A DNA stretch of 6,127 bases, from IMG/VR virus record IMGVR_UViG_2690316099_000002, positions 1 through 6,127 of that record; one strand, given 5' to 3'. Below are positions 1-6,127 of the stretch, piece after piece. Made by a program: the position numbers and the translations under genes. The notes beneath the pieces were generated by a model. It saw only the letters and a program-made list of their open reading frames with translations. It searched no databases and was not told the DNA's origin. Each line of letters begins with the position of its first letter. The first letter of the stretch is position 1. The stretch comes from a virus. Taxonomy: Duplodnaviria > Heunggongvirae > Uroviricota > Caudoviricetes.

Positions 1-69
1 GTGCAGAAATCCCTCCGGTTAAGGATTAAATTTTATTTACAGTGCTGGATTTAATTATTCAGATTTGGA

Positions 70-345
70 TTATGCTTTCTCTTCACTCCGGTATACAAGA
101 ATTACAACGTCACCTCTGCTAATCACGCGAGCTGGCTCTCCTGGTTCTATACTGTCAATATCGAAGGTCTCAAAAAACGCATTCATTGCCTTCTGCCGCT
201 GCGTCTGTTTACAGCGTTTATTCCATTCTTTCAGTAACATCAGTGACAGCCACCGCCATGAGCAGAACATGATGTAGCACCAACCAAGAAGCGCCAGCCC
301 CGTATTGAGGGCCGTACCAATCGTCATTGTTGCGTCGATATTCAC
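70..345 (-). CDS. Small hypothetical membrane protein (91 aa from GTG at 345; alternative ATG start at 327)
   Basis: ORF with a hydrophobic stretch (TIGTALNTGLALLGWCYIMFCSWRWLSLMLL), consistent with one or two transmembrane helices. GTG at 343-345 overlaps the upstream stop (GTGA) and is preceded by AGGAGGAGG with a short spacer. No family recognised. Confidence 0.55.
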   Translation of the reverse strand: MNIDATMTIGTALNTGLALLGWCYIMFCSWRWLSLMLLKEWNKRCKQTQRQKAMNAFFETFDIDSIEPGEPARVISRGDVVILVYRSEEKA

Positions 346-638
346 TGTACCTCCTCCTGGAAAATAACTGCATGCCCCAGTTTCTCCGCCAGCGCCAGTT
401 CTGCCTTAGCGCCTGCTGACCGCTGCCAGCCTTTCAGCATGTAAATCGCATCCACACAACGAATCATTGCCATGCAAATATCCATGTAGTGCGGCTGTGT
501 CAGCCCGTCCGGAAGTACTGCCGGGTTTAAGACGGTATGCCCTTCCCGTTTCAGTTCCTCTTCTGCCTTGTGAAACGCCTCACGGTTGAAATTTTCATAC
601 CCCGTCATTGGACCGGCGATATAAACCCTCACCCTCAC
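342..638 (-). CDS. DUF4406-like prophage protein (nucleoside 2-deoxyribosyltransferase-like fold), 98 aa
   Basis: The N-terminus MRVRVYIAGPMTGYENFNREAF...GHTVLNP matches the conserved YIAGPMTG...N...F...G..V.NP signature I recall for DUF4406. GTG start at 636-638 overlaps the upstream stop (GTGA); AGGAGG lies about 7 nt upstream. Confidence 0.7.
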   Translation of the reverse strand: MRVRVYIAGPMTGYENFNREAFHKAEEELKREGHTVLNPAVLPDGLTQPHYMDICMAMIRCVDAIYMLKGWQRSAGAKAELALAEKLGHAVIFQEEVQ

Positions 639-1051
639 GCCATCACCTCCTGAAAATTACCCTGATAAAACGCCAGCACACGCTGCATAACCTTGCTTTT
701 CCGGCACTCGAGACAGATTATGTTCTGACGCCTGTCGTAGTGGCGTATCTCTCCATCTGGTAATGAATAAATCAGGCCAGGGTCGCTCTTCTTTTTCGCT
801 GCACCTTTAGACATCTCTTTATGGGCTTTTATCCAGTCTTTACGTGCCTGCTCAGAAGGGAATATTCCATGCCCTGAACCATATACAACACCACTGTCTA
901 CCAGTTCTTTCGCCAGAACTTCAATCAGATGTCTCGTCGCCCCTGTTTCATTTTCCAGTTGTTTACGCGTTTTCCTACCATCTCTGCGTACCAGTTCCAC
1001 AATACGCGCCTTTACTTCTTCCCGTTGTTCGGGAGTAAAAACTTTTACCAT
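635..1051 (-). CDS. Hypothetical phage protein, 138 aa, possibly DNA-binding
   Basis: ATG at 1049-1051 preceded by AGGAGGA at good spacing, 14 bp downstream of the preceding gene's stop. Basic, charged N-terminal region; no confident family match from sequence alone. Confidence 0.7.
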   Translation of the reverse strand: MVKVFTPEQREEVKARIVELVRRDGRKTRKQLENETGATRHLIEVLAKELVDSGVVYGSGHGIFPSEQARKDWIKAHKEMSKGAAKKKSDPGLIYSLPDGEIRHYDRRQNIICLECRKSKVMQRVLAFYQGNFQEVMA

Positions 1052-1065
1052 AAGTCCTCCTGAAA

Positions 1066-1569
1066 TTACTTCACAACCCTCAGGTGTCTGACATTCGAAC
1101 GCCAGCTCTCCCAGTTAAAATTCACCCAGCGACCACCGTTCATGACCATGCGGTCCATCACACGCTCGCCAAGAAGCGTACTCATCGCTACGTGGTTCAG
1201 GTTCGTCAGCATTCCGACACTACGCATCGAAGCAGTTCTGCGGTCGACTATCTGGTTCAGTGTGACCTGCTCGTTGCGCGTATCCCGCTGCATTCCGATT
1301 TCATCCAGGACAAGCAGGTCAACATCACACAACCCCTGTAAAAATTTTTCGCCTGAGTTTTTGTTGTCGTAGCTGTTGTGTAACGCCAGCATCACATCAG
1401 CCACCGTTATCACAATCACGCTGCGACCTTTCGCCAGAAGATGATTGCCAATGGCGGCTGCAAGGTGGTTCTTTCCGGTACCCGGCTTACCGCTGAACAC
1501 AAAATTCGTGCACCCTGTCATCAGTTCGTCAGCGATGGATTTTGCCTGGACGTCAAATACAGTTTCCAT
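1066..1569 (-). CDS. N-terminally truncated DnaC-like AAA+ ATPase (about 167 aa from ATG at 1569; the ORF track extends to a TTG at 1587)
   Basis: Roughly 80% identical to residues ~89-248 of the upstream 248-aa DnaC-like protein. Walker A (GKPGTGKNHLAAA) and Walker B (DLLVLDEIG) are intact. Own ATG preceded by GGAGGA; the DnaB-binding N-terminal region is absent. Confidence 0.75.
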   Translation of the reverse strand: METVFDVQAKSIADELMTGCTNFVFSGKPGTGKNHLAAAIGNHLLAKGRSVIVITVADVMLALHNSYDNKNSGEKFLQGLCDVDLLVLDEIGMQRDTRNEQVTLNQIVDRRTASMRSVGMLTNLNHVAMSTLLGERVMDRMVMNGGRWVNFNWESWRSNVRHLRVVK

Positions 1570-2073
1570 TAAAACATCCTCCAACAAAAATTACTTCACA
1601 ACTCCCGGAAAGCTGACATTTGAACGCCAGCTATCCCAGTTAAACGTCACCCACCGACAACCGTTCATGGTCATGCGGTCCATAATCCTCTCACCAAGAA
1701 GCGTGCTCATTGCGGCATGATTCAGGTTTGTTAACATCCCGACACTGCACAGTGATGCTGTCCGGCGATCAATTATCTGGTGCAATACCACCTGCTCGTT
1801 TTTCGTCTCCCGCTGAATGCCTATTTCATCCAGGACCAGCAAATCAACCCCGCAAAGCTCCTGTAAAAATTTTTCACCGGATTTGCCGTTGTCGTAGCTG
1901 TCATGCAACACGCTCATGACATCAGACTCGGTGACGATAATCACGCTGCGCCCCTTCGCCATCAGCCGGTTACCCATCGCCGCTGCAAGGTGATTTTTCC
2001 CGGTGCCGGTTTTACCGCTGAACACAAAATTCGTGCACCCTGTCATCAGTTCGTCAGCGATGGATTTTGCCTG
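1066..2073. repeat. Tandem direct duplication (period about 525 bp, roughly 80% identity) spanning the AAA+ portions of the two DnaC-like genes
   Basis: 1066..1548 aligns with 1591..2073 at the protein level and, by eye, at the nucleotide level. Both copies end ...AATTACTTCACAAC. Identity is estimated from the translations, not computed. Confidence 0.7.
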
Positions 2074-2337
2074 GTTCAGCGCATGTTTTTGCCCGTCGTT
2101 CTGCACCTGATAATTCGCAAACGAGCATTTGCTGTGCAGAGGCTGGATGCCCGAACGATTCAGGATTTTTTCCACCCGCAACTGGCGATTCTGGCGGTTG
2201 ATCTCCTCGCTACGTTTTCGCCCTTCTGCCAGTTGCCACTCGCGCCACTCATCCACTGTCCGGTACGGCGCGATTACATGCTGCGGGGTCAGCTTACGGA
2301 TACGCTCAAGAACACCACCTGCCGCGATATTTTTCAT
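1591..2337 (-). CDS. DnaC-like replicative helicase loader (prophage YdaV-type), 248 aa
   Basis: Full-length similarity to DnaC as I recall it: N-terminal region with NRSGIQPLH...CSFANYQV, Walker A GKTGTGKNHLAAA, Walker B DLLVLDEIG, C-terminal LGERIMDRM. ATG at 2335-2337, 6 nt downstream of the preceding stop. Confidence 0.85.
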   Translation of the reverse strand: MKNIAAGGVLERIRKLTPQHVIAPYRTVDEWREWQLAEGRKRSEEINRQNRQLRVEKILNRSGIQPLHSKCSFANYQVQNDGQKHALNQAKSIADELMTGCTNFVFSGKTGTGKNHLAAAMGNRLMAKGRSVIIVTESDVMSVLHDSYDNGKSGEKFLQELCGVDLLVLDEIGIQRETKNEQVVLHQIIDRRTASLCSVGMLTNLNHAAMSTLLGERIMDRMTMNGCRWVTFNWDSWRSNVSFPGVVK

Positions 2338-2343
2338 GGCCCG

Positions 2344-3309
2344 TTACCCCCTGAACCCCGGCGGAATTTCGGTATCCGGCTCAGAAATATGATTCACACA
2401 ACGCTGTACAGACGAACGCCCCAGGCGGATAACCAGTTCATCCCATTTTCCGCGAAGCTTTGACGGACTCATGATATTTTTTACCCAGAATGGATCCCGC
2501 TGCGCCCGACCAAACATTTCACAAATTTGTCTGTGAGTTCTGCCATCCAGCATCCGCATTGTGCGCACGTCGTTGGCCCATGCGGTCCAGTTGGGTTCTT
2601 TCGGTCGCGAAATCTCGCCATCATCGCTGGCGGCCTGCTCGTAAAGACTCACGATTCGCCCCCAGATCCACTGCGCACACGCCAAATCTTCCTGGTTGCC
2701 CCACTGGCGTTTTTTTGCACTGAACACAACCGCGTCAGGGTGTCGGGTTAAAAAATCCTGTTCAACCGTCTGCGGGTCCGGTTGCGAAGCTTCCGGACGA
2801 GAAGTGTTTTTATTCTCTGTAGTAATCTCTGTTGTATTCTCTGTAAGATCATCAGGCCATTTTGACCCGATGACATTGAGTCGTTTTGAACCAATGGAAC
2901 GTGCCATTTTGGCCTCTTCCATCGTGTCATTCTGACCTGATGGAGCAGCGCATTTTGACCTGATGGATTCGCTCACTTTGCCACCATCTAAAAGCTCGCT
3001 CTCGTAATTAATCGTGTAAAAATTAGTCATATCACGCTTTGATTTATTGAGCTTTTCGCAACGCAAAAGCCCCAGCGTTTTCAGACTGGCAAATGCGCGT
3101 TTTAACGTTGACTCTGACCAGAACGGGAACTGCTCCAGCCATTGTTCTGTTGTGTTATAAATCCAGCGAACACCATCACATTCCATGCCGGAACCGGTAT
3201 CTCTCAACCAGTAGTGCAGTTGTTGCAAAACAATGGCTTCGTTTAAGCCAATTTTCATTGCCAGCTGCGTGTTTATAACCAGTGGGCGTTCAGCAAAAAG
3301 AAGGCTCAT
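2344..3309 (-). CDS. Phage replication initiation protein (replisome-organiser / O-like, N-terminal HTH), about 321 aa
   Basis: Long ORF immediately upstream of the DnaC-like gene, the usual position of the initiator. N-terminal HTH-like segment (LAMKIGLNEAIVLQQLHYWL). The track's start at 3363 is a TTG; the first ATG is at 3307-3309 (used here), overlapping the upstream gene by 20 bp. Start is uncertain; another ATG lies at 3256-3258. Confidence 0.7.
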   Translation of the reverse strand: MSLLFAERPLVINTQLAMKIGLNEAIVLQQLHYWLRDTGSGMECDGVRWIYNTTEQWLEQFPFWSESTLKRAFASLKTLGLLRCEKLNKSKRDMTNFYTINYESELLDGGKVSESIRSKCAAPSGQNDTMEEAKMARSIGSKRLNVIGSKWPDDLTENTTEITTENKNTSRPEASQPDPQTVEQDFLTRHPDAVVFSAKKRQWGNQEDLACAQWIWGRIVSLYEQAASDDGEISRPKEPNWTAWANDVRTMRMLDGRTHRQICEMFGRAQRDPFWVKNIMSPSKLRGKWDELVIRLGRSSVQRCVNHISEPDTEIPPGFRG

Positions 3310-3811
3310 AATTCCATCCAGCTTTTTGTTGGTATTGCTGTCGATACGCAAGTTTGAAAGCAATGGCTTTTTCTATAAGTTCGTCAGTTTCACGATCCAC
3401 TACAGCTGGATCTGCAAAAAGCAGCCCGGACTCCACCACATCGCCATATTCTTTGTTTAACCCGGCGATCATGTACGTGATGCTTTTTCCGTCACTAATT
3501 TCACGATACAACCTGAAATCATTAATCCGGATAGCCTCCATAATTGCCGGAATCAGCGCCGTGAATTTTTTCCGCTTATCCCTGGTGTCGATAGCTTTCC
3601 AGCGTTCGAATATCTTCACCCGGTTAACGCCCAGCGCCCGTTGATCAACCTCGCCATCATTAAACGTGACGCGTTGAACATCGATGTTCGGGCGTTCTTT
3701 CAGAGCCCAGAATGCTTCCGTGATTAATATCGTCGCCTGCTCCTGTGTCATTCCTGGTCGGCACACCCAGGCATCCAGAGCCTCACAAACCTGTTCAGGG
3801 GTGATTTTCAT
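3290..3811 (-). CDS. YdaT-like protein (putative toxin YdaT family), 173 aa
   Basis: Sits directly downstream of the Cro-like gene, as ydaT follows ydaS in Rac-type prophages. ATG at 3809-3811 overlaps the DicC-like 3' end by 17 bp. Family assignment is from position and general sequence character, not a verified alignment. Confidence 0.65.
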   Translation of the reverse strand: MKITPEQVCEALDAWVCRPGMTQEQATILITEAFWALKERPNIDVQRVTFNDGEVDQRALGVNRVKIFERWKAIDTRDKRKKFTALIPAIMEAIRINDFRLYREISDGKSITYMIAGLNKEYGDVVESGLLFADPAVVDRETDELIEKAIAFKLAYRQQYQQKAGWNYEPSFC

Positions 3812-4022
3812 TGTTCAACCGCCCCGCCCGCTTCGTCTTACGATATTCGTCATAAACTTTGGGATCATACTGAAGCTCCCCGCCAGATGCCTCTTGCAGG
3901 CGCATCGCGCGACCTTCAGGAACCAGTTCCCCCCATTGAGAAACAGCAGATGGATCAACACCAGCAGCTTTCGCTACTTTGGCTTTCGTCCCATAAAAAT
4001 TAATTACGTCTGATTTAAACAT
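3795..4022 (-). CDS. dicC: DicC-like Cro-type regulator, about 75 aa
   Basis: The C-terminal two-thirds (GELVPEGRAMRLQEASGGELQYDPKVYDEYRKTKRAGRLNNENH) closely match my recollection of E. coli DicC. ATG at 4020-4022 preceded by GGAGGGG. The track's longer start at 4049 is a TTG lying inside the operator-like palindrome. Confidence 0.8.
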   Translation of the reverse strand: MFKSDVINFYGTKAKVAKAAGVDPSAVSQWGELVPEGRAMRLQEASGGELQYDPKVYDEYRKTKRAGRLNNENHP

Positions 4023-4034
4023 CACCCCTCCAAA

Positions 4035-4050
4035 ATTGAGTTTTCTCAAT
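4035..4050. promoter_or_regulatory. Operator-like inverted repeat ATTGAG-N4-CTCAAT in the dicC/dicA divergent promoter region
   Basis: Perfect 6-bp inverted half-sites with a TTTT spacer. A near-identical copy lies at 4568..4583. CTCAAG/TCAAGG half-site-like direct repeats follow at 4058..4080. Confidence 0.55.
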
Positions 4051-4099
4051 AGTAATCACTCAAGGAATCTCAAGTCAAGGGTTATTAAGATATCTAAAT

Positions 4100-4507
4100 A
4101 TGAACGAGAAAACTTTAGGTCAACGAATTAGAGAAAGACGCAAACAGGTTGGTTTAAGTCAAAACGATTTAAGCAAAGCCGCTGGCGTATCTGGCTCATC
4201 AATTTCACTATGGGAAAGCGACCATACAGCCCCGCGTGGGCAAAATTTGCATCGCCTGGCTGAGGTATTGCAATGTTCACCAACTTGGATACTGTTTGGT
4301 GACGAGGATAAAACACCAGATCCACCAGTTGCACTCAACAGCGCCTTAGACTTATCGGAAGATGAGTTGGAGATGTTGCGATTGTATCGCGCACTTCCAA
4401 AATCAGAGCAGCAAGCACAAATCAGCGAACTCCGTGCCCGCGTTGAGAATTTTAATCGCCTATTCACCGAGCTACTAGAAGCTCGCAAACGTAACAAACA
4501 TCAGTAA
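4100..4507 (+). CDS. dicA: DicA-like XRE-family HTH repressor (CI-type), 135 aa
   Basis: N-terminal HTH (GQRIRERRKQVGLSQNDLSKAAGVSGSSISLWE) and the motif LQCSPTWILFGDEDK, plus a C-terminal segment SEQ...RARVENFNRLF.ELL.A, all close to my recollection of Qin DicA, which has the same length. No clear Shine-Dalgarno upstream of the ATG. Confidence 0.9.
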   Translation: MNEKTLGQRIRERRKQVGLSQNDLSKAAGVSGSSISLWESDHTAPRGQNLHRLAEVLQCSPTWILFGDEDKTPDPPVALNSALDLSEDELEMLRLYRALPKSEQQAQISELRARVENFNRLFTELLEARKRNKHQ

Positions 4508-4524
4508 TCCCCTTCACAAATTTT

Positions 4525-4558
4525 AAAGCCTTACATTTCAATGTATTGGCTTTATTTT
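4525..4558 (+). terminator. Putative intrinsic terminator downstream of dicA
   Basis: AAAGCC (4525-4530) pairs with GGCTTT (4548-4553), with additional inner pairing ACAT/ATGT, followed by ATTTTG. The stem is AT-rich, so it is probably a weak terminator. Confidence 0.4.
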
Positions 4559-4567
4559 GCATTAAAT

Positions 4568-4620
4568 ATTGAGTTTTCTCATTAAAAGCACTTGACCAAC
4601 AGTCATGAGAAAACTAAATT
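4568..4620 (+). promoter_or_regulatory. Second operator-like repeat (ATTGAGttttCTCATT, 4568..4583) with a candidate sigma70 promoter for the leftward operon
   Basis: The repeat matches the 4035..4050 site at 15 of 16 positions. It is followed by a -35-like TTGACC (4592-4597), a 17-bp spacer and a -10-like TAAATT (4615-4620). Confidence 0.45.
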
Positions 4621-4696
4621 ACCACCCATCAAGACACCGCACGGTGTTCTCAGCAAACAGTTCCGCTACCCGGCGTTAAGGGGAAATGAGGTCAAC

Positions 4697-4849
4697 ATGG
4701 ATACTATCGATCTTGGTAACAACGAATCTCTGGTGTACGGCGTGTTTCCCAACCAGGACGGCACATTCACCGCGATGACGTATACCAAAAGCAAAACGTT
4801 TAAAACCGAAGCTGGCGCGCATCGCTGGTTAGCAAGAAACTCTGACTGA
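4697..4849 (+). CDS. ydfA: YdfA-like small protein (DUF1391), 50 aa
   Basis: ATG at 4697 preceded by GAGG. Size and position (first gene after dicA, same strand) match ydfA of Qin. The longer track ORF from 4592 has no RBS and includes the promoter region. Confidence 0.65.
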   Translation: MDTIDLGNNESLVYGVFPNQDGTFTAMTYTKSKTFKTEAGAHRWLARNSD

Positions 4850-4860
4850 TGAGGTTGACG

Positions 4861-5499
4861 ATGGAATTTAAAGATTTACCTACTTCAATCCAGGAGATTG
4901 CAGCACACACACTTCGTCATCGTCTGAACGAACTTGCATTGGAATCGGTAACGAAAAAAGACACTGATAATATGGCTCGTAATGTGCGCGATGCGTTTAC
5001 CGGATTGTATTTCTGTGCGTCTGTAAATAAACACGACTCAGATAGTGTGGCAAATAAAATTGCAGAAACGACAGCGCAAAACATCAATACGAAACCAACG
5101 GAAGAAGAAATTGATCAGTTTGCTCATGATGCTGGTTTAAAAAACAAGAAAGAAAAATCGCCATATGCGGGGAACATGTTTGTTTATGACAATCTCATCA
5201 GAATTCGTGGCGAAATTCCGGCGGAATACCTGGCAAGAGTCCATCAGGCATTGCTTAAAAATCTGGAAACAGAATTATTTGATGGCAACACTAACGGTTT
5301 CTTCATGGTATCAGGCCTTGAGAAAGACTGGGATGCAGAAAAACGCTGGAATGTTGCCACATGGTTATTCAGTAACAGAGCCGCTGCCCTGGAAGCTTCG
5401 GCATGTATTTGCGGCCTGTTCTTAACAGACCACAAATATAATCTGGATGTGTACAGTTATATTTACGCTGAACACGGTCCGCTCTGGATTGACTGGTAA
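4861..5499 (+). CDS. Hypothetical protein, 212 aa, in an AT-rich insert (candidate moron)
   Basis: ATG at 4861 preceded by GAGG with about 7 nt spacing. The track's start at 4849 overlaps the ydfA stop (ATGA) and is an alternative. Visibly lower GC than the replication module. No recognisable family. Confidence 0.7.
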   Translation: MEFKDLPTSIQEIAAHTLRHRLNELALESVTKKDTDNMARNVRDAFTGLYFCASVNKHDSDSVANKIAETTAQNINTKPTEEEIDQFAHDAGLKNKKEKSPYAGNMFVYDNLIRIRGEIPAEYLARVHQALLKNLETELFDGNTNGFFMVSGLEKDWDAEKRWNVATWLFSNRAAALEASACICGLFLTDHKYNLDVYSYIYAEHGPLWIDW

Positions 5500-5709
5500 T
5501 TATAAGGAAACACCAGCAGGGCCGAGGCGACCAACTGAACGATTAAAATCAATAATGCCATTATAAAGGACATTATTTAATTTATCGTCGAATGCTGATT
5601 CTGTGAGCCTCAACTCTGAATGAGTTTTTAATAACCCTGATTGCCTGAGTTGATTTACCAGGCATTCAATCTGTTTTTCAATAAGCGGATTTCTTTTTTT
5701 GTTTGGCAT
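5500..5709 (-). CDS. Hypothetical small basic protein, 69 aa, convergent with the 212-aa ORF
   Basis: ATG at 5707-5709 preceded by GGAGGA at 4-5 nt. Very AT-rich. Its stop is immediately adjacent to the stop of the plus-strand 212-aa ORF (5497-5499 / 5500-5502). Basic N-terminus (MPNKKRNPLIEKQ) suggests possible nucleic-acid binding. Confidence 0.55.
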   Translation of the reverse strand: MPNKKRNPLIEKQIECLVNQLRQSGLLKTHSELRLTESAFDDKLNNVLYNGIIDFNRSVGRLGPAGVSL

Positions 5710-6044
5710 TTTATCCTCCATTGAGGTTCTGGGTTAAAAATGGAGACCAACACGCTGCCACGTGTGGTCGTGCGCCGGACACGGATAAGAATCCGGTACT
5801 GACAGTTTACTGAAAGGATATATCCCTGAAAAGCCAGGGCATAACGCGAAAGCGCACGGCGAAGTTCGTCTCACTGTACGGTGTCGTTAAATTTAATTCG
5901 ACCGTGCGCTTCCGGTTGTGGCACTCCGCGAAATGGCGCGGCGGTAAGTATGGCGGGGTTATTCCTCCCCCATTGAGACACCGGGTTGCCAGGTTGACCA
6001 TACGCTTAAGTGACAACCCCGCTGCAACGCCCTCTGTTATCAAT

Positions 6045-6097
6045 TTTCTGGTGACGTTTGGTGGTATCAGTTTTACTCCGTGACTGCTCTGCTGCCC
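6045..6097 (+). ncRNA. dicF: DicF-like antisense sRNA (ftsZ-targeting cell-division inhibitor RNA)
   Basis: TTTCTGGTGACGTTTGGTGGTATCAGTTTTACTCCGTGACTGCTCTGCTGCCC matches the roughly 53-nt E. coli DicF sequence as I recall it, apart from two C-to-T changes in the terminal stem. It is followed by TTTTT. Confidence 0.7.
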
Positions 6098-6102
6098 TTT
6101 TT
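6058..6102 (+). terminator. Intrinsic terminator forming the DicF 3' end
   Basis: GGTGGTA (6060-6066) can pair with TGCTGCC (6090-6096) using G-U wobbles, with inner CAG/CTG pairing, followed by a T5 run at 6098-6102. Confidence 0.55.
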
Positions 6103-6127
6103 AAAGTGAATTTTGTGATGCGGTGAA

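Follow-up and report, generated by a model that had tools for sequence, protein, structure and literature searches.

The immunity region of the window

The DNA analyzed here, referred to throughout as the window, is the whole 6,127-nt stretch at positions 1 to 6,127 of the virus record IMGVR_UViG_2690316099_000002. It belongs to a Qin-like prophage of Escherichia coli and is 99.8% identical to two E. coli chromosomes. The subject of this study is a short dyad that recurs around the dicA-like repressor gene of this prophage, where it probably serves as the operator of the immunity switch. The genes and elements involved are as follows.

3795-4022, minus strand: dicC-like (Cro-type) gene, 75 amino acids (Pfam P22_Cro, E 1.1e-17; 72% identity to K-12 DicC)
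4027-4031, minus strand: Shine-Dalgarno sequence GGAGG of the dicC-like gene, read from the sequence, 4 nt before the ATG (4022-4020)
4035-4050, core 4036-4049 TTGAGTTTTCTCAA: candidate operator, copy 1, equivalent to the Qin Oc / P22 OR1 position
4100-4507, plus strand: dicA-like immunity repressor gene, 135 amino acids (HTH_3 at residues 10-64, E 1.2e-16)
4524-4560, plus strand: terminator-like hairpin followed by AUUUUG, after dicA (-12.3 kcal/mol, z -3.7, not equaled by any of 200 shuffles)
4568-4583, core 4569-4582 TTGAGTTTTCTCAT: candidate operator, copy 2, 8 nt upstream of a predicted -35 element
4604-4619, minus strand, core 4605-4618 (plus strand ATGAGAAAACTAAA): candidate operator, copy 3, in the spacer and -10 element of the predicted rightward promoter
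4697-4849, plus strand: ydfA-like first gene of the repressed operon (Pfam DUF1391, E 3.5e-29)
6046-6097, plus strand: DicF small RNA, distal product of the ydfA operon, full length (Rfam RF00039, 66.9 bits, above the gathering score)

The naming of dicA, dicC, and ydfA homologs in the first-pass annotation of this sequence holds on the strength of these matches, and the presence of DicF downstream confirms that the window carries a dicBF-type operon. The dicA-like protein is 56% identical to K-12 DicA over 128 amino acids, including the C-terminal LPxSE...NFNxLFxELL region, and its residues 1-72 align without gaps to the N-terminal domain of P22 C2 (47% identity; PDB 1adr and 2r1j). Pfam finds only helix-turn-helix (HTH) families in it, at residues 6-71, and no LexA-like S24 cleavage domain, and the protein fits the DicA-type short repressors, which have about 135 amino acids, an N-terminal HTH_3 domain, and a short conserved C-terminal part. 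Divergence between the DicC-like protein and K-12 DicC is confined to the N-terminal HTH part, residues 31-75 being almost identical. The dicA and dicC reading frames are both intact, and the hairpin at 4524-4560, which is conserved in related alleles, lies between dicA and the rightward promoter.

Copy 1 (ATTGAGTTTTCTCAAT) is a perfect 6-N4-6 palindrome. Copy 2 (ATTGAGTTTTCTCATT) differs from this 16-mer at one position and copy 3 (ATTTAGTTTTCTCATG on the minus strand, CATGAGAAAACTAAAT on the plus strand) at three. A search of the 6.1-kb window with the 16-mer at up to three mismatches returned these three matches where 0.10 would be expected, and a count of three was not reached in any of 200 shuffles that preserved the dinucleotides. 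Chance repetition is thereby ruled out. Repeat finding also picked up all three relationships among the copies (repeats D2, I2, and I3). The first-pass annotation had described the motif as ATTGAG-N4-CTCA(A/T)T, with one copy at 4035-4050 and a single copy, at 4568-4583, next to the promoter of the ydfA operon. Both copies are present, far beyond chance, and copy 2 does lie upstream of that promoter, but copy 3 at 4604-4619 had been overlooked. As for the motif itself, the dyad stands and the outer base does not. Most related alleles have G or C in place of A4035, which leaves the 14-mer TTGAG-TTTT-CTCA(A/T) at 4036-4049, 4569-4582, and 4605-4618 as the conserved unit. The core of copy 1, TTGAG-TTTT-CTCAA, is a perfect dyad, and copies 2 and 3 keep 9 and 8 of the 10 half-site bases, respectively. 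Copies 2 and 3 lie 36 bp apart, center to center. They are oppositely oriented, down to their asymmetric centers (TTTT versus AAAA), and this arrangement is kept in both Buttiauxella loci described below. The promoter region that they span, 4568-4619, could fold on itself (-12.6 kcal/mol, z -3.9), as a cruciform or a long hairpin.

Predicted promoters and their overlap with the dyads

A promoter consensus scan of 3950-4750 gave exactly two promoter-like sites, each with 9 of 12 consensus bases.

4049-4078, minus strand: predicted leftward dicC promoter, -35 TTGACT (4078-4073), 18-nt spacer, -10 TACTAT (4054-4049)
4592-4620, plus strand: predicted rightward promoter of the ydfA...dicF/dicB operon (equivalent of dicBp/PL), -35 TTGACC (4592-4597), 17-nt spacer, -10 TAAATT (4615-4620)

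Copy 1 lies over the predicted transcription start of dicC and the final two bases of the -10 element predicted for this gene, 12 nt upstream of the dicC start codon. It had earlier been placed over the ribosome-binding site and start region of dicC; this proved wrong, as the copy starts 3 nt upstream of the Shine-Dalgarno sequence and is clear of both that sequence and the start codon (4020-4022). The -35 column of the dicC promoter (AGTCAA) is invariant across the window, P22, K-12, Buttiauxella, and Rosenbergiella, and the start of the K-12 counterpart of this promoter has been mapped by 5' rapid amplification of cDNA ends (PMC3441716). At the rightward promoter, copy 3 occupies the spacer and the -10 element, while copy 2 ends 8 nt before the -35 element. 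The dyads thus sit on core elements of the predicted promoters, as they do in lambdoid operator sets in which the repressor excludes RNA polymerase, and copy 3, over the -10 element, looks more repressive than copy 2.

Conservation among related prophages

The sample used for footprinting consisted of 83 loci, reduced to 51 distinct sequences, from E. coli prophage contigs, two metagenome bins, and Buttiauxella ferragutiae. Mean column entropy per segment was as follows.

4023-4035: flank left of copy 1, 0.38
4036-4049: copy 1 core, 0.027
4050-4059: flank right of copy 1, 0.28
4060-4073: dyad at the OR2 position, 0.074
4085-4098: dyad at the OR3 position, 0.000
4569-4582: copy 2 core, 0.105
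4583-4591: spacer before the -35 element, 0.55
4592-4597: -35 hexamer, 0.086
4598-4604: spacer, 0.93
4605-4618: copy 3 core, 0.050
4621-4630: after the -10 element, 0.41

With the rightward -10 hexamer at 0.046, the dyads and the promoter hexamers form islands of conservation, and the variation among the 51 alleles is concentrated between them. All three copies are also retained in both Buttiauxella species (loci L004 and L005), whose repressors are only 75-76% identical to that of the window; copy 1 is identical in B. ferragutiae (L004), and copy 2 is present in both species as the perfect dyad TTGAGTTTTCTCAAT. The expectation that the motif would be kept next to dicA homologs in related prophages was therefore borne out. 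An alignment-based scan of viral contigs for further immunity types was also tried; it recovered only the same near-identical E. coli alleles and added no diversity.

Comparison with K-12 Qin

The cryptic prophage Qin of E. coli K-12 has the same gene order and gene sizes as the window and also carries ydfA and DicF downstream. Its operator Oc (TTGTTAGTCATAACTAACAA) lies in the same place as copy 1, 14 nt upstream of the dicC start codon compared with 12 nt in the window, and in both prophages the operator overlaps the dicC -10 element by 2 nt and the dicC -35 element is TTGACT. The correspondence extends to the other side of dicA, where K-12 dicBp, like the rightward promoter of the window, has TTGACC, a 17-nt spacer, and a -10 element (TAATCT in K-12), with one dyad in the spacer and -10 element and another upstream of the -35 element. 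These two dyads are separated by 35-36 bp in K-12 and in the window, and copy 3 aligns with K-12 ATGTTAGTCATGGCTAATCT.

Published work on K-12 provides functional data at the corresponding positions. DicA represses dicC and dicBp (PMC3441716, PMC10448788). Yun et al. found that K-12 DicA binds Oc, which overlaps the dicC -10 element, in vivo and that a single base change abolishes this binding (PMC3441716), and Ragunathan et al. reported a 22-fold derepression of dicBp without dicA (PMC10448788). The K-12 DicC protein binds on both sides of dicA (PMC3441716, PMC10448788, PMC11430063).

The specificity elements are what differ. Both half-sites have changed, from TTAGT-CATA-ACTAA in K-12 to TTGAG-TTTT-CTCAA in the window, and so has the recognition helix of the repressor, from SHVSVSQWE to SGSSISLWE. 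At the DNA level, the window is only 30-60% identical to K-12 Qin over approximately 3910-4628 and more than 90% identical on either side, so that dicA, the HTH half of dicC, and all of the sites fall within the divergent cassette; judged from the sequence, this is the structure of a classical heteroimmune imm region. Taken together, the differences in operator, helix, and cassette make the window a heteroimmune variant that falls outside the Qin immunity group though it works alike.

Comparison with phage P22 immC

The P22 sequence used was AF217253; immC of this phage has six OR/OL operators, and the names OL1 and OL2 were assigned here to P22 dyads by their order from the promoter. Apart from the similarity of the DicA-like protein to the C2 N-terminal domain and the membership of the DicC-like protein in the P22_Cro family, the window shares with P22 the 5-N4-5 geometry of the operators with an A/T-rich center, the presence of three dyads between the cro-type and repressor genes at a spacing of 23-25 bp, and a PL-type promoter, TTGACC-17-TAAATT, in which both hexamers and the spacing are the same. 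Copy 1 aligns with the OR1 position of P22. P22 OR3, directly next to the repressor ATG, is matched in the alignment by 4084-4099, and the dyad in this segment, 4085-4098, aligns with K-12 Oa as well. On the other side of the repressor gene, the P22 dyads aligned with copies 2 and 3 are ATTTAAGTTTTCTTCAAA, upstream of the PL -35 element, and AATTAAGAAGTCTTAAAT, over the PL -10 element, respectively.

Several features set the window apart from P22. The half-site is TTGAG rather than TTAAG, and residues 32-34 and 37 of the repressor are G, S, S, and L rather than N, V, A, and Q. In the P22 consensus, ATTTAAGATATCTTAAAT, the half-sites are TTAAG and the four base pairs at the center are not contacted; Val33 of C2 packs on the four thymine methyls of TTAA (PMC5175364, PMC4267663). 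The TTGAG half-site removes one of these methyls, and residue 33 in the window is Ser; we infer from the two sequences that these changes are linked. In addition, the repressor of the window, at 135 amino acids, does not have the LexA-like cleavage and oligomerization domain of C2, the site at the OR2 position is degenerate, and where P22 has gene 24 (N-like) in its PL operon, the window has ydfA/dicF/dicB. Nor is a third upstream OL dyad like that of P22 evident in the window, where a terminator hairpin occupies that place.

Covariation of the dyad with the recognition helix

Thirteen loci from other species were sorted into five groups by the recognition helix of the repressor, each with its dyad.

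Window and Buttiauxella: helix S(G/D)SSISLWE, dyad TTGAG-N4-CTCAA
K-12 type: helix SHVSVSQWE, dyad TTAGT-N4-ACTAA
Symbiopectobacterium, Yersinia, and Rosenbergiella: helix (S/A)HVTISQWE, dyad TTAGA-N4-(C/T)CTAA, degenerate in Symbiopectobacterium
E. whittamii and LSJC7: helix SSVSVFKWE, dyad ATAAC-N4-GTTAT-like
Citrobacter braakii: helix SHATISLWE, dyad a TTGAG/TTAAA hybrid

An automatic picker of the dyad at the OR1 position produced spurious ties in several loci, and its matrix was dropped in favor of an unbiased comparison of 14-mers that recur in two stretches of each locus, the 85 nt leading up to the repressor ATG and the 140 nt following the repressor stop codon. The best shared 14-mer of each locus was the dyad of its own group, located at approximately -64 and at approximately +60 and/or +98. 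When upstream and downstream segments were compared across loci, the best shared 14-mer matched at a mean of 12.6 of 14 positions within groups versus 11.0 of 14 between groups (Mann-Whitney p ~1e-11, the pairs not being independent). The operator dyad changes together with the recognition helix of the repressor in these heteroimmune relatives.

Weaker dyads between dicC and dicA

Two further sites between dicC and dicA resemble the dyad less closely.

4060-4073: TCAAG-GAAT-CTCAA, candidate weak site with two half-site mismatches, at the P22 OR2 position, equivalent to K-12 Om, over the dicC -35 element
4085-4098: TTAAG-ATAT-CTAAA, candidate site with two half-site mismatches, equivalent by position to P22 OR3 and Qin Oa, its end 1 nt short of the dicA ATG

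The centers of copy 1 and of these two dyads are 24 and then 25 bp apart, and the segment 4060-4079 is identical to P22 OR2 plus the PR -35 element at 17 of 20 positions (TAAAGGAATCTTTAGTCAAG aligned with TCAAGGAATCTCAAGTCAAG). The half-site-like repeats suggested earlier for 4058-4080 are present, with CTCAAG at 4059-4064 and again at 4069-4074; the accompanying suggestion that they are lower-affinity sites is plausible from the P22 OR2 position, though unproven. The loose pattern TTGAGNNNNCTCAA with two mismatches had five matches in the window against 3.2 expected and was not enriched, so the case for the OR2- and OR3-position dyads comes from positional homology alone. Three of the 14 bases of the 4060-4073 dyad are changed in B. 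ferragutiae.

The box at 4085-4098 (TTAAGATATCTAAA) shares 13 of 14 positions with the P22 consensus core TTAAGATATCTTAA and is closer to it than to the window's own TTGAG dyad. It is invariant in the 51 alleles and unchanged in the heteroimmune C. braakii locus (L006). One could imagine that it is an immunity-independent element, bound by P22/21-type repressors of co-resident prophages rather than serving as an operator for the cognate repressor, and that one prophage would in this way set the repressor level of another and hence its dicB/dicF expression, but we regard this as improbable.

The dyad as probable operator and the alternatives

The copies on both sides of the repressor gene, their 5-N4-5 form, their overlap with predicted promoters, the HTH-type repressor with its divergent cro-type gene, and the covariation between dyad and helix are all features of a lambdoid operator set of the P22 immC type. 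Because of the footprint, the covariation, the position-by-position homology with K-12 and P22, and the published K-12 data, we conclude with considerable confidence that the 14-bp dyad is the operator, to which a dimer of the DicA-like protein would bind, in the immunity switch of a lambdoid prophage of the Qin/mEp460 type, and that this switch has a DNA specificity of its own. The same evidence supports the DicA logic assumed in the first-pass annotation, in which the repressor acts on both dicC and the dicB operon.

A number of points weigh against this conclusion. The binding data for this system come from the K-12 homologs only (PMC3441716, PMC11430063), and even in K-12, the binding of DicA to an operator at dicBp has been described as 'predicted' (PMC10448788). 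The transcription starts in the window are predicted. Most of the 51 alleles come from E. coli prophages that are close relatives of one another and do not amount to independent samples, and among the three cores, that of copy 2 is the least conserved, with variants such as TTGAGATTTCTTAT and TTGAGTTTTATCAT. The conservation of copy 3 is confounded with promoter function, as is the invariance of 4085-4098 with the function of the dicA promoter and start region. Finally, K-12 DicA did not bind Om or Oa when these were cloned singly (PMC3441716), and the degenerate dyads of the window may accordingly be inactive.

Some of these points are shared with the most serious alternative, namely, that only copies 1 and 3 are true DicA operators and that copy 2 and the OR2- and OR3-position dyads are P22-like relics or are used by DicC only. 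The tolerance of half-site variants in copy 2, the changes to the OR2-position dyad in Buttiauxella, and the failure of K-12 DicA to bind Om and Oa singly would all fit such a partial set, as would the fact that DicA, in which Pfam detects only the HTH, does not have the C-terminal cooperativity domain of C2 and cI. Copy 2 is nevertheless far more conserved than its flank (0.105 versus 0.55), it is perfect in both Buttiauxella species, and each specificity group has a dyad of its own at this position, all of which leads us to consider the partial set unlikely, if worth keeping in mind.

That the repeats are functionless leftovers of a decaying cryptic prophage is a good deal harder to sustain. 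Many Qin-like elements are indeed cryptic and a few alleles have damaged sites (L052 and L066), yet the conservation islands stand amid variable spacers, the dicA and dicC frames are intact, the same sites are found in the viable temperate phages mEp460_ev081 and HannyBb (PMC10448788), and the region is present in no fewer than 766 of 5,426 complete E. coli genomes. Least credible is a role of the palindromes as RNA or DNA structure, either a hairpin in the dicC leader, where copy 1 could form 6 bp within a fold of -6.3 kcal/mol, or a cruciform or long hairpin in which copies 2 and 3 pair over ~14 bp (-12.6 kcal/mol, z -3.9), given that shuffled sequences fold as well as the dicC leader (z -1.65), that copy 2 is upstream of its promoter and so outside that transcript, that the sites are invariant without compensatory changes and their sequence follows the recognition helix, and that the imperfect dyads, copies 2 and 3, keep their half-sites and not their pairing.

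A model of the switch

With the dyad taken as the DicA operator, each HTH_3 domain of a dimer of the 135-amino-acid repressor would read one TTGAG half-site, and the A-tract center would be read indirectly. Repressor on copy 1 would block RNA polymerase and keep dicC and the early-right genes off, and its occupancy of this site may also stimulate dicA, by analogy with K-12 DicA at Oc. Repressor on copies 2 and 3, which bracket the rightward promoter, would keep the ydfA...dicF-dicB operon off, while 4060-4073 and 4085-4098 may serve as weak auxiliary sites. The divergent cassette includes the HTH half of the Cro-like DicC protein, which very probably binds to the repressor's sites too, presumably with the reverse preference. 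We infer, for the window, the binding itself, the protein that acts at each site, cooperativity, and the activation of dicA. As the repressor has no cleavage domain, induction would be expected to depend on a Rem-type antirepressor, by analogy with the published system (PMC10448788).

Neighboring genes and leader

The window is more than 90% identical to K-12 Qin in DNA from 4629 on. The leader between the rightward promoter and ydfA (4629-4697) exceeds 95% identity to K-12 Qin beside the divergent cassette and contains a small hairpin, ACACCGCACGGTGT; Rfam gave no match in 4500-4720, and the fold of the ydfA leader was no better than that of shuffles. DNA similarity to Qin falls again from approximately 4840, and the place of K-12 Qin ydfB and ydfC is occupied by a 216-amino-acid open reading frame (4849-5499, plus strand) with no Pfam match. 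Farther to the left, on the minus strand, 1066-2337 holds tandem DnaC/IstB-like open reading frames, a full-length one at 1591-2337 (248 amino acids) followed by a shorter one at 1066-1587 (173 amino acids) that lacks approximately the first 87 residues. The two are 79% identical over 160 amino acids, and the arrangement resembles a partial duplication or else a scar left by recombination of two prophage replication modules.

Distribution and implications

The same immunity type is found in two temperate phages, mEp460_ev081 (LR597641) and HannyBb (PP925841), at 91-92% DNA identity across the region, the HannyBb repressor being 96% identical to that of the window. Both are complete viable phages. 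A search of the mEp460_ev081 genome (45.9 kb) for the 14-mer, allowing up to two mismatches, gave four matches against 0.55 expected; three of them flank the repressor gene, and the fourth, a two-mismatch match, is in the major head gene. This phage carries dicB and has been described as a functional temperate phage with dicAC, dicB, dicF, and rem (PMC10448788). Its genome (locus L176) has a rem-like gene at 36287-36538, and rem encodes the DicA antirepressor in Qin, which suggests, by analogy, that induction in the immunity type of the window may follow the same antirepressor route as in Qin. Two contigs of metagenome-assembled genomes labeled 'Bacillota bacterium' and 'Veillonella parvula' (L002 and L003) also carry the region, at 96% protein identity, and are most likely binning contaminants and not genuine hosts. 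No description of the operators of mEp460_ev081 or HannyBb was found in the literature searched, and a string search for TTGAGTTTTCTCA had no match, nor was any description of the operator sequence of the window found in the searchable literature.

Regulation of this kind has been known since the 1980s, and the system is one more heteroimmune example of it; in this respect it is ordinary, and it leaves the current view of lambdoid switches unchanged. The immunity type is nonetheless common in E. coli, the 1.3-kb region being present at a coverage of at least 80% in the 766 or more genomes counted above. The combination of TTGAG with Ser33 in the window and TTAAG with Val33 in P22 would represent a natural specificity switch on a structurally solved scaffold. 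Knowledge of the operator would also make it possible to predict which of the Qin-like prophages in one strain are co-immune, and it may guide the design of reporters and mutants.

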